Positions 1,880 through 62,194 of a DNA stretch of 64,000 bases are shown in pieces. Under the pieces are notes generated by a model. That model made no database searches. It had not been told where the DNA came from and worked only from the letters and a program-made list of their open reading frames with translations. The translations under genes and the position numbers were made by a program. The first letter of the stretch is position 1. Each line of letters starts with the position of its first letter. Source of the stretch: an uncultured Alphaproteobacteria bacterium (GTDB lineage Bacteria > Pseudomonadota > Alphaproteobacteria > RF32 > CAG-239); the NCBI GenBank assembly GCA_944393205.1, contig CALXZI010000001.1:5725-69724 (forward strand). Direction: 5' to 3'.

Positions 1880-2452
1880 TCACTTTTCACAAGAGATAAT
1901 TTTGTCGTCATAAATGACAACTTTTACGGTATCCCCTGCATGGTAGTCCCAATCCTTGGCTACTTTAGAAGATACCTTAAAAATACCTCCTTCTTCCAAA
2001 GATATGTAGATGTTGTTTTCAGACTTCACATCCACCTGTTGAAGGACCACCGTTTGAGAAGGTTTTCTATCAGGAGAAGAAATATATACTCCCAATACCA
2101 CCAAACCTAAGATGGTGATAAAAGCAAATCCCACTATCTTTGGAAGAATCATCCCTATCACGCATCCCAGCCCGATCAAAATGACCACCCTGAAACACTC
2201 GCCGATAGTACTTGATGACGGTATCAGCCCAAAGAGCAACCCTGCAACAAGCAGGGATAATAATCCGACAATGCTCCTGCCTTTATGCATATCGCGGAAT
2301 TTGGTGATAATAATACACATTGCTACTACGAAAAAACCCAATGCTACAACTGAGCTTTTCCCCTTCCAAAGGAAGGCCTCTGCTGTCAAAATACTTAAAA
2401 ACAGCACACTGACAATTACATTTGTCAGAATTTCTTTACTCTTTTTATCCAT
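1880..2452 (-). CDS. membrane protein with 4-5 TM helices and a small C-terminal beta-rich (NfeD-like OB-fold?) domain
   Basis: Hydrophobic segments throughout. The C-terminus, ...KDWDYHAGDTVKVVIYDDKIIS, resembles the NfeD short C-terminal domain. Confidence 0.3.
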   Translation of the reverse strand: MDKKSKEILTNVIVSVLFLSILTAEAFLWKGKSSVVALGFFVVAMCIIITKFRDMHKGRSIVGLLSLLVAGLLFGLIPSSSTIGECFRVVILIGLGCVIGMILPKIVGFAFITILGLVVLGVYISSPDRKPSQTVVLQQVDVKSENNIYISLEEGGIFKVSSKVAKDWDYHAGDTVKVVIYDDKIISCEK

Positions 2453-2611
2453 ATCTATATCTTAATTTTTAATATTCTGGACTCAAGATATCCGATTTTC
2501 ACAATTTTGTCAATAAAAATATTTTGCCAAAATCAAAACTTCATAAAACCAAAAGCATACTGTGCGCTGACATTCTTTGACAACATTCATCCTCAAAAAA
2601 AACGAGGATAC

Positions 2612-2645
2612 CCAACGCAAAAAGGCGGAAAAACTTCCGCCTTTT
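2612..2645 (-). terminator. rho-independent terminator after rplO
   Basis: GGCGGAA-aaac-TTCCGCC hairpin with an A-run on the plus strand, which is a T-run on the minus strand, immediately downstream of the rplO stop. Confidence 0.6.
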
Positions 2646-2671
2646 ATGATAGTTGCTTAAAACTTCAGAGC

Positions 2672-3127
2672 TTAAGCAATAACGTTGACTTTACCGCCGG
2701 CTTTTTCAACCGCCTCAACCGCCGCCTTGGAAGCGGAGTTGACTGAAATGTTGATGCTGGTGGTAATCGCACCGCGAGCCAACAGACGAACACCGTCTTT
2801 TTTGCCGGAAATAATTCTGGATTTCAACAAAGCTTCAATATCAATAGCGCTGGCATCCAACTTGCCGGCGTCAATGGCTTTTTGAATGGTGTCCAGATTA
2901 ACAACCGCAAAATGAAGCGCAAACGGATTCTTAAAACCGCGTTTCGGCAAACGACGGTAAATCGGCATTTGTCCGCCTTCAAAACCGTTTTTGGCGCCGC
3001 CCGAGCGGGATTTCTGACCCTTAACGCCGCGGCCGCCGGTTTTACCCTTGCCACTGCCGATACCGCGTCCGACACGGATACGGTCCTTGGTCGCTCTCGG
3101 ATTGTTTTTCAATTCATTAAGTTTCAT
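2672..3127 (-). CDS. rplO: 50S ribosomal protein L15
   Basis: Gly/Arg/Lys-rich N-terminus ([15 protein letters not shown]) and position after rpmD. Confidence 0.9.
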
Positions 3128-11715: not shown

Positions 11716-11782
11716 TATTATTTTTTCCTTTTCTAATTGGTTGACGCCTCATATTTCAAAACGCCAACATTAAAATTTATTA

Positions 11783-12094
11783 TTACAATTTAATCTCAAC
11801 ATTTACGCCGGCGGCCAAATCAAGCTTCATTAAAGCATCAACCGTCTGCGGTGTCGGATCTACAATATCCAGAAGTCTTTTGTGAGTACGGATTTCAAAC
11901 TGCTCGCGAGATTTTTTATCAACGTGCGGCGAACGGTTCACCGTAAACTTTTCAATTCTGGTCGGCAGAGGAATAGGCCCTCTGACGTTTGCCCCCGTTC
12001 TTTTGGCTGTATGCACAATCTCTTTTGTAGAAAGATCAAGCAAACGATGATCAAAAGCCTTGAGGCGAATTCTTATATTTTGGGTTTCCATCAT
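11783..12094 (-). CDS. rpsJ: 30S ribosomal protein S10, first gene of the S10 operon
   Basis: 103 aa, [14 protein letters not shown]...PLPTR. Confidence 0.95.
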
Positions 12095-12387
12095 ATTTTT
12101 ATTTTTCCCTATAACTAAACGGCAAAAGCCACCTTAACGGAACCTTGCCATTTAACTCGTTAAAACACTGACAAATCGTTCTATAGCAACGCTTTGCCCT
12201 ATATTTTATATTTAACATCACCGAGGTTTGTTAAAGACCCCGAACAAACGTTGTGAAGGGCTTATAACATAGCAAAACAAACTTTGCAAGCAAAAAATGC
12301 ACAAAAAATCAAAAAAAAGTTAACACCGCAAATCCTTGCTACGACTCTTATTGAGTCTCCCATCCGATTCACAGCATTAACCTTTTT

Positions 12388-12414
12388 GAGTCCAAAGAGT
12401 CCAATGAGTCCAAA
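12388..12414. repeat. 3x tandem 9-bp repeat GAGTCCAAW; three of the six clustered GANTC sites
   Basis: gagtccaaa gagtccaat gagtccaaa at 12388-12414. Further GANTC sites lie at 12343, 12353 and 12366. Confidence 0.8.
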
Positions 12415-12460
12415 AAACCGATGTTTCTCGTAAAAATATACCATAATATTATTTTTATTG

Positions 12461-12496
12461 CAAAACACGAAATTAAAGGTTGCATAATCTGTTTTT
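12461..12496 (+). promoter_or_regulatory. candidate sigma70-like promoter for the RHH gene (TTGCAA -17- TGCATAAT)
   Basis: ttgcaaaacacgaaattaaaggttgcataat, about 55 nt upstream of the ATG at 12551. Confidence 0.3.
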
Positions 12497-12550
12497 CTAT
12501 TATAAGTATATGCATATGTATTAATCAACTATTTGGAGAGGAACGCGCCA

Positions 12551-12844
12551 ATGACAAAGCTTGCCAACCGTGTTATTTCAATTTTTAATCGTAAAACCAG
12601 TATGCGTCTGGCCATGCCTGAATGGGATGCCGTGGATGATATTTGCCGCAGAGAAAACATTAAACGCAAACGGCTTTTTGAAATCATTGAAAACAACAAA
12701 GATCCCAAACTCGGTTTCACCTGTTCGGTACGCCTGTTTGCCATCACCTATATGCACAAACACCTGCCCAACTATCTTCCGAAACAGAAAAACGGCAAAA
12801 ACAATTATGAAGATATTTTTGAAACCATAAAATTTATGTCTTAA
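12551..12844 (+). CDS. ribbon-helix-helix (RHH_4-like) small protein
   Basis: Start at MTKLANR with a GGAGAGG RBS. The pattern S.RL...W.A...IC..E......L...I........L.SA.R.F.L matches the alphaproteobacterial RHH_4 family. Confidence 0.45.
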   Translation: MTKLANRVISIFNRKTSMRLAMPEWDAVDDICRRENIKRKRLFEIIENNKDPKLGFTCSVRLFAITYMHKHLPNYLPKQKNGKNNYEDIFETIKFMS

Positions 12845-61576: not shown

Positions 61577-61828
61577 TTAATAAGTATCAGTTAACACCCC
61601 TCTCCACACATCATCCCACTTTGAGGCGGCTTCTTCATAAGTGAAGTAAATGTCAATATCAACATTAGCTACCTTTTTAGCAAGGGTATGGCAACGCTCC
61701 TGCTGCTGCCATGCGTACCTGCGTACTATTCCCTTGTTTTTCCGATTCAGTTTATGGAACCAGCGAATCTTCAAGTACGGGTGTTCAAGATAACACTCCG
61801 ATTCGGGATTGGGGTACTTCTTTTCCAC
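61577..61828 (-). CDS. small hypothetical protein with faint AP2-like (phage/HNH-associated) signature
   Basis: 83 aa. The IYFTYEEAASKWDD segment resembles the AP2 LGTF.T.EEAA.AYD core. Confidence 0.25.
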   Translation of the reverse strand: MEKKYPNPESECYLEHPYLKIRWFHKLNRKNKGIVRRYAWQQQERCHTLAKKVANVDIDIYFTYEEAASKWDDVWRGVLTDTY

Positions 61829-62194
61829 TCTCTTGTTTATCAGGGCAAAACGAACCTGATAAAATAATAAACCACAACTTCTTTAATCGCCAATATGGCA
61901 AAAGTGATGCATCCACCGATTATAACAACGCATACATCCGGTAACAACTCTTTCATAATAGTAAAAGCATTAAGTTAAGTTAAATAATATATTTTATAAG
62001 CATATTATATTCAGTATGATTTTTTTCAGTATGATTTTTTTGTCAAGATAATTAACAAAAAAAATCACTTGCTGTTTTTGCTTGCATTTTAAAACGGAAG
62101 AGTATATAAACGCTTTTGAACGGGCGGTTCGGGCCAATCGGCATGCCTGACAGCCCTTAACATTAATCCAACAACCAAAGAAAGGATTTTTAAA

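Follow-up and report, generated by a model that had tools for sequence, protein, structure and literature searches.

An array of GA(C/G)TC boxes upstream of the predicted S10 operon promoter in uncultured Alphaproteobacteria

A compact array of short GA(C/G)TC boxes lies upstream of the predicted promoter of the S10 ribosomal-protein operon in an uncultured gut alphaproteobacterium and in most of the related lineages compared. Comparison of these loci shows that the array belongs to the predicted rpsJ promoter and not to the ribbon-helix-helix (RHH) gene on its other side. Judged from its conservation, it is very probably a functional cis-regulatory array that binds protein at the S10 operon promoter. 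The DNA analysed (the window) is a stretch of 64,000 nucleotides with a GC content of 43%; identical or near-identical contigs occur in human gut metagenome assemblies and among uncultured Alphaproteobacteria MAGs.

The GANTC cluster and the rpsJ promoter

On the + strand the six GANTC sites of the cluster read GACTC (12343), GAGTC (12353), GATTC (12366) and three times GAGTC (12388, 12397 and 12406). The three distal sites are the first five bases of each copy of a 9-mer (GAGTCCAAA/T, 12388-12414), which Tandem Repeats Finder reports as a repeat of period 9 with 3.0 copies and the consensus GAGTCCAAA. An earlier note on this DNA had described six sites in ~70 bp, including the threefold 9-mer, and this is borne out, the exact span being 72 bp. 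The same note had expected one site per ~256 bp; the window holds 86 sites, so that the true density is ~1 per 744 bp. Dinucleotide-preserving shuffles of the window contain 178 +/- 12 sites, and outside the cluster GANTC is depleted ~2.7-fold. Six sites in 72 bp appeared in none of 20,000 uniform placements of 86 sites (0 of 20,000). Because three of the six derive from one tandem repeat, the relevant test counts the repeat once, and four independent events in 72 bp arise in 0.8% of placements. The count of the region against the window accordingly marks the cluster as non-random in DNA otherwise poor in GANTC. The second-densest group of the window (three sites in 61 bp, 61744-61800) sits within an 83-aa ORF (61577-61828, - strand) and not in a promoter.

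The flanking genes are those named earlier, rpsJ and a divergent RHH gene, with an intergenic region of 456 bp (Table 1). rpsJ is the first gene of the S10-spc cluster, a long series of - strand genes for ribosomal proteins. Its predicted promoter consists of a -35 element (TTGCAA, 12289-12284), a 17-nt spacer ending in TGn and a -10 element (TATAAG, 12266-12261), followed by a GC-rich discriminator, and transcription is predicted to start near 12254. The -35/extended -10 pair is conserved in all the related rpsJ loci collected (36 lineages), at a constant 188-197 nt from the rpsJ ATG. A consensus promoter scan did not call this promoter (12289-12261), since the scan demands T at position 6 of the -10 whereas TATAAG ends in G; the assignment is therefore drawn from conservation. 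The scan did call another promoter, at 12463-12435 (-), with a putative start near 12428. Relative to that start the boxes would lie at +14 to +85, but this region is unconserved in relatives and the call was not adopted. Directly upstream of the -35 lies a T-tract, nearly invariant in both clades described below, whose position and composition suggest that it acts like an UP element.

With a start near 12254, the boxes fall at -89 to -156, so the placement of the cluster in an S10-operon leader, as the earlier note had it, is wrong: the sites lie upstream of the rpsJ promoter. In the leader proper (12254-12095) there is no GANTC site. The position upstream of the -35 and -10 also sets the cluster apart from an L4-type attenuator RNA, an element inside the transcribed leader. 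The leader is of interest in its own right. It is highly conserved in more than 25 species, contains an invariant AAATATAAAATATAG block and can form two hairpins with some compensatory changes, as well as a 5' hairpin that covaries between clades. A search of the region against Rfam gave no match, either at the gathering threshold or at E <= 10, and the leader may be a ribosomal-protein autoregulatory leader not yet described.

Table 1. Coordinates of the features discussed (positions in the window)
Feature	Position	Strand	Remarks
rpsJ (ribosomal protein S10)	11783..12094	-	ORF; PF00338 annotation on identical proteins
rpsJ 5' untranslated leader, ~160 nt	12095..12254	-	highly conserved; contains no GANTC
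Predicted rpsJ (S10 operon) promoter	12261..12289	-	conservation-based
T-tract, UP-element-like	12290..12318	-	directly upstream of -35; TTTTTTTTGATTTTTTGTGCATTTTTTGC on rpsJ strand
GTTAAC element	12319..12324		distal edge of A/T-rich UP-like tract
Box 1, promoter-proximal	12343..12347	-	GAGTC on rpsJ strand; ~-93 to -89 from predicted start
Box 2	12353..12357	-	GACTC on rpsJ strand; ~-103 to -99 from predicted start
Box 3, optional	12366..12370	-	GAATC on rpsJ strand; ~-116 to -112 from predicted start
TTAACCTT element	12377..12384	+	abuts box array; part of GACTCAAAAnGGTTAAy block (rpsJ strand)
Boxes 4-6, 3x tandem 9-mer	12388..12414	-	+ strand GAGTCCAAA / GAGTCCAAT / GAGTCCAAA; ~-156 to -134
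Putative RHH promoter (TTGCAT ... TATAAG)	12480..12506	+	65 bp past distal array end; inferred
RHH_4 (PF13467) ribbon-helix-helix gene, 97 aa	12551..12844	+	conserved ATG at 12551; Pfam match

Read on the rpsJ strand, the array has the order [GACTCa-N3]x3 - AAAAGGTTAAT - N8 - GAATC - N8 - GACTCAATAAGAGTC - N18 - GTTAAC, which is followed by the T-rich tract, TTGCAA, the 17 nt ending in TGn, TATAAG and the GC-rich discriminator. Box starts are 9, 9 and 10 bp apart in the window.

Conservation of the array and its ties to rpsJ

Related loci were collected in four sets: same-species contigs; 69 species-representative loci found via the RHH protein; ten loci found via the S10 protein, several species having the same S10 sequence; and 35 metagenome loci found via a promoter/leader DNA pattern. 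They yield 36 rpsJ promoter lineages from alphaproteobacterial MAGs of gut and rumen, counted as separate where identity over the 125 nt preceding the -35 is below 90%. In 30 of the 36, two or more GANTC sites lie between -30 and -130 of the -35, where the chance expectation, calculated at the GANTC density of the clade, is ~1.3% per lineage. The array is thus conserved in most lineages; the remaining six (L073, L090, L100, L102, L114 and L116) have one site or none. In the 538 kb of DNA sampled from the clade, pairs of GANTC sites at a spacing of 9-11 bp occur almost exclusively upstream of rpsJ, and the exceptions checked are intragenic (e.g. in tgt of L046).

In clade A, the window's own clade (10 lineages), the offsets of the boxes from the -35 are fixed and spacer lengths are kept, while the spacer sequences have almost fully diverged. 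Offsets are counted from the first base of the -35 or from the base before it, which gives discrepancies of 1 nt. Box 1 is found in 10/10 lineages at -57/-58 with GAGTC invariant, and a within-species polymorphism in L005 changes its central base alone (GAGTC to GAATC). Box 2, at -67, keeps G, A, T and C in 10/10 lineages with C or T in the centre. Together the two form an invariant block, GAyTC-AAnnA-GAGTC, 10 bp from start to start. Box 3 occurs at -80/-81 in six lineages and is missing in L009, L011, L013 and L053. The innermost 9-mer copy (12388) is universal, with its GACTC at -102 inside the invariant block GACTCAAAAnGGTTAAy, and additional tandem GACTC copies at -111/-120 are optional: there is one copy in L011 and L013, there are two at 20-bp spacing in L007, L008 and L077, and three in the window, L083, L009 and L053. 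Two further elements accompany the boxes. The TTAACCTT element is kept in nine of the 10 lineages, as exact TTAACCAT in L007, L008 and L009, and presumably resembles the CtrA half-site TTAACCAT. GTTAAC is kept throughout the clade at a constant 18 nt from box 1, the sequence between them having diverged.

Clade B (16 sequences) has a simpler arrangement. Nothing upstream of the promoter core is invariant except the block TWGACTC-N4-TWGACTC, centred near -90, in which the GACTC cores are 11 bp apart and box orientation is the same in 16/16 sequences; the 6-nt gap between the cores varies freely, with at least eight different gap sequences. A further lineage (L088, L108 and L112) has two GAATC sites, 12 bp apart, in a comparable position. 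Whereas the sites of the window lie at -89 to -156, those of other lineages lie at -65 to -100. Over all lineages, box starts are separated by 9, 10, 11, 12 or 20 bp. In L092 and L103 the boxes lie 15-19 bp nearer the -35, so that strict helical phasing is not universal.

What is conserved is narrower than GANTC. Of 103 distinct array sites, 75% have C or G as the central base; among 610 isolated GANTC sites in the same genomes the share is 19.5%. This identifies the conserved unit as t(A/T)GACTCaa and not as generic GANTC. The flanks of the boxes are partly conserved (tAGACTCaa), and all distal boxes, like both boxes of clade B, read GACTC on the rpsJ strand. The bias of the central base, the conserved orientation and the partly conserved flanks point to a sequence-specific protein reader with a narrower target than that of a GANTC methylase. 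The central base is itself less constrained than G, A, T and C, as at -67 and in L005. Such tolerance suits a symmetric reader centred on the pentamer, and also suits a methylation-linked reader with a central-base preference.

The array stays with rpsJ and not with the RHH gene. It is kept where the RHH gene and its promoter have been cleanly deleted (L077-L080, L082, L084 and L085), where other genes lie upstream (tuf and two hypothetical genes in L076; also L103), where insertions of ~370-640 bp separate the RHH gene from rpsJ (L007 and L008) and where the RHH gene is 2.5 kb distant (L071). Conversely, the 250-600 bp upstream of 54 RHH genes located away from rpsJ contain essentially no GANTC and no arrays of ACTC/GAGT boxes, and thus show no sign of autoregulation. 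The constant distance from the -35 across species and the passage of the array with rpsJ through rearrangements make it a property of the rpsJ promoter. Among close relatives, the rpsJ-RHH intergenic region is a rearrangement hotspot: the insertions in L007 (about 2440-3000) and L008 lie between the array and the RHH promoter, and the deletion of the RHH gene and promoter in L077 (2100-2500), a common human-gut species type, is precise.

The RHH gene has a putative promoter of its own. A TTGCA-N15-17-TATAxx pattern recurs upstream of RHH homologues, and its distance from the array differs between species (~50-100 bp). An A(T/A)(T/A)CAAC(T/C) motif (in the window TAATCAACTATTT, 12515-12535) is found ~20 nt upstream of the RHH start codon and is kept whether the gene adjoins rpsJ or not (e.g. 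L007-L011, L049 and L052); it may be a regulatory or translational element of the RHH gene itself.

Several other assignments of the cluster were rejected. The GC skew stays uniformly negative over the whole window, which speaks against a replication origin in it, and the array follows rpsJ into different neighbourhoods. An ORF over the repeats (12284-12433, 49 aa) is unlikely to be coding, as variants in copy number and the 20-bp spacing break its frame in relatives. Nor is the array a general feature of ribosomal promoters: the window's rpmI-rplT promoter has the TTTTTGCTTGCA core but no GANTC. That promoter region (62010-62115) has the TTTTTGCTTGCA -35 context in common with the rpsJ promoter, and just upstream of it lies an exact twofold direct repeat of a 15-mer, TTCAGTATGATTTTT (62010-62041). 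Elsewhere in the window, three tandem paralogous ORFs of 165, 176 and 176 aa (32359-33896, +) have '...AFKDDWEIDPK...HGLHKPTGFEI...' in common, the last two being seemingly identical over the first 50 residues listed.

Candidate readers of the boxes

The earlier note had offered, as one of two readings, a direct-repeat binding site for a regulator, possibly the adjacent RHH protein. The regulator site is the best fit to the data and the neighbour is a plausible binder, with the amendment that the array goes with rpsJ. That RHH_4 is the protein which reads the boxes is a tentative model, and on the sequence evidence we would give it somewhat less than an even chance. That the neighbour encodes an RHH fold is indicated by its Pfam match (PF13467; E = 1.8e-7; score 31.6 bits, cut-off 25), by an AlphaFold model in which a strand (residues 17-19) precedes two helices (22-35 and 39-49), and by a profile search whose sole PDB neighbour is the uncharacterized protein 3KK4. 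The residues of the ribbon predicted to face the DNA (K15, S17 and R19) are invariant or nearly so. A literature search on PF13467/RHH_4 found nothing, and the family is without a characterized member. The array is present in 21 of 22 lineages with a divergent RHH gene, among which the RHH proteins are 41% to 100% identical, and in seven of 10 lineages without an adjacent RHH gene; this association falls short of significance (Fisher p = 0.08), and phylogeny confounds it. L073 has an adjacent RHH gene, yet no boxes.

Short repeated boxes in mixed orientation with A/T-rich spacers, as found here, are typical of RHH operators. RHH repressors usually autoregulate, whereas the 54 RHH genes away from rpsJ lack box arrays upstream. 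The heptads bound by the omega repressor are another type of RHH operator array. A close likeness is to the OF and parH sites of ParG (plasmid TP228), in which very short ACTC boxes are arranged as direct and inverted repeats with short A/T-rich spacers and bind one RHH dimer per box (PMC3413123). The core GACTC of the present boxes contains ACTC, their orientations are mixed, their spacers are A/T-rich and an RHH gene adjoins them. However, the spacer between ParG boxes is always 4 bp, and the boxes are placed downstream of the -10, where they serve to repress the protein's own operon, whereas the spacers here are 4-6 bp or longer and the array lies 90-155 bp upstream of a ribosomal-protein promoter. 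Cooperativity of the ParG type requires constant box spacing (PMC3413123), and the spacing here is less uniform than in ParG arrays. In addition, RHH genes located elsewhere are without such boxes, and RHH_4 is a different, uncharacterized family.

A transcription factor encoded elsewhere, such as a response-regulator dimer of the OmpR/PhoB type, might instead act as an upstream activator of the S10 promoter by sitting on the 18-bp TWGACTC-N4-TWGACTC direct repeat. This reading is doubtful, but several features of clade B agree with it: two 7-bp direct repeats with a 4-bp spacer and an 11-bp period, which we take to be an architecture of the Pho-box type, a centre near -90 and an orientation that never varies among the 16 sequences. 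The survival of the array without an adjacent RHH gene also speaks for an unlinked factor. The 9-bp tandem and the 10-bp inverted pair of clade A, on the other hand, are a misfit for a head-to-tail dimer; no candidate factor was identified, and the conserved divergent RHH gene would be left unexplained.

As an activator site the array recalls Escherichia coli rrnB P1, which has Fis sites at -71, -102 and -143 together with an UP element. In both cases multiple phased sites lie far upstream of a strong promoter for the translation machinery, with an A/T-rich UP-like tract. The clade A block GAyTC-N5-GAGTC even fits what we take to be the loose Fis outline, G-N2-Y-N7-R-N2-C. However, the direct repeat of clade B at 11 bp is unlike a Fis site, and to our knowledge no Fis is expected in Alphaproteobacteria, so that the likeness is one of logic and not of membership. 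Fis-like and IHF-like readings of the boxes were not adopted, as the geometry of the boxes is not conserved between the clades.

The other reading in the earlier note, a CcrM methylation-sensitive promoter, is not supported as claimed, and we consider it unlikely that the boxes matter as GANTC methylation sites. Under such control, a GcrA-like reader or methylation-sensitive competition would tie S10 transcription to the state of replication or of the cell cycle. It is true that every box fits GANTC and that orthologous boxes exchange the central base (C/T at -67, G-to-A at -57 in L005 and the GAATC pairs of L088, L108 and L112) but never G, A, T or C. Nevertheless, central base and orientation are far more constrained than methylation alone demands, and the conserved unit is narrower than GANTC. 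Coding DNA shows a 2.2- to 2.4-fold depletion of GANTC, as is reported for Alphaproteobacteria with CcrM (PMC3973325), but the depletion is not specific, since AGNTC, CTNGA and GTNAC are equally depleted. Observed/expected ratios for GANTC are 0.41-0.45 in coding DNA and 0.82 in intergenic DNA, and the intergenic excess vanishes once the rpsJ arrays are removed (0.52, against 0.45 in coding DNA).

The sites also differ in position from those of known targets. The likeness to CcrM/GcrA-controlled promoters of Caulobacter (ctrA P1, mipZ and ftsZ) consists in the GANTC motif, in the alphaproteobacterial host and in the commonest heptamer, TGAGTCT, which fits the GcrA preference YGAKTCK (PMC4647560); this preference is met by 47% of array sites and 32% of background sites, but by only one of the six sites in the window. 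GcrA-responsive sites in Caulobacter are single or few and lie at ~-20 or at +2 to +30 (PMC4647560), whereas the arrays have two to six sites at ~-65 to -160, those of the window at -89 to -156, with a constrained central base and orientation. No ribosomal operon is reported among CcrM/GcrA targets in the literature searched.

The enzyme itself was sought at three levels. A scan of the 64-kb window for the DPPY motif found no ccrM, nor was gcrA found there; tblastn found neither gene in ~0.7 Mb of related loci; and protein database searches with Caulobacter CcrM and a low-GC representative (P0237) as queries gave no CcrM tied to the clade; the matches are Caulobacter-like, or are low-GC homologues in unrelated contexts or linked to HinfI restriction systems. 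The clade does have a CtrA orthologue, 71% identical to Caulobacter CtrA, which counts in favour of methylation control. In L108 its gene (11744-12421, +) lies ~11.5 kb downstream of the rpsJ promoter and is preceded by TTAA-N6-TTAA and TTAAC elements, with no GANTC. Clustered potential methylation sites inside putative regulator sites upstream of a promoter also recall the Dam switches of pap (Lrp) and agn43 (OxyR), but these involve another methylase and motif and serve phase variation of surface structures, whereas the operon here is an essential ribosomal one; no signs of a Dam-type switch were found at the rpsJ array.

Another short motif is also rare in this DNA. CTNAG occurs only 10 times in the 64-kb window, 0.04 of the expectation from composition, compared with 0.41 in 69 related species. 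A general bias against CTNAG is known (PMC3973325); its scarcity in the window suggests a species-specific restriction pressure, possibly DdeI-like.

Finally, it is very improbable that the boxes have no specific reader and were produced by slippage, or belong to an intrinsically bent A-tract element in which GANTC occurs by chance: the copy number of the 9-mer does vary from 1 to 3 between species and A-tracts do flank the boxes, but the box cores are invariant amid spacers saturated with substitutions and return at fixed positions even in lineages with unalignable flanks.

Proposed mechanism and implications

The array would act as an upstream operator or activator module of the promoter of the rpsJ (S10) ribosomal-protein operon. 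Its GA(C/G)TC boxes (consensus t(A/T)GACTCaa), arranged as direct and inverted repeats 9-11 bp apart with A/T-rich spacers, would each be bound by one sequence-specific protein, roughly on one face of the DNA. The bound protein would then modulate the recruitment of RNA polymerase at the strong promoter downstream, with its UP-like tract and extended -10. Among possible readers the small RHH_4 protein, encoded divergently beside rpsJ in most lineages, is the most likely. The RHH and methylation models are not mutually exclusive. In a host with a CcrM-type methylase, the boxes would also carry methyl groups, and protein binding could depend on their methylation state. A replication-coupled epigenetic control of the S10 operon, in which CcrM methylation of the GACTC boxes gates the binding of RHH_4, is quite improbable; if true, ribosome synthesis would be reset whenever a replication fork hemimethylates the locus.

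The usual view of ribosomal-protein operons is that growth-rate signals and feedback on translation control them, and not operator arrays dedicated to them upstream, and no published GANTC or GACTC array at a ribosomal-protein promoter was found in the literature searched. Here, an array of boxes has long been retained in evolution at a promoter that drives more than 20 ribosomal-protein genes, and an uncharacterized RHH_4 gene accompanies it in most lineages. If a link to the RHH protein is true, it would provide the first candidate function and DNA target for the widespread RHH_4 family. Since the box is a CcrM target as well, the locus is a simple one at which to ask whether ribosome synthesis in Alphaproteobacteria is linked to methylation. 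Even if the array is merely an ordinary activator site, it would still be a clean, lineage-specific motif, useful for annotating uncultured gut bacteria.
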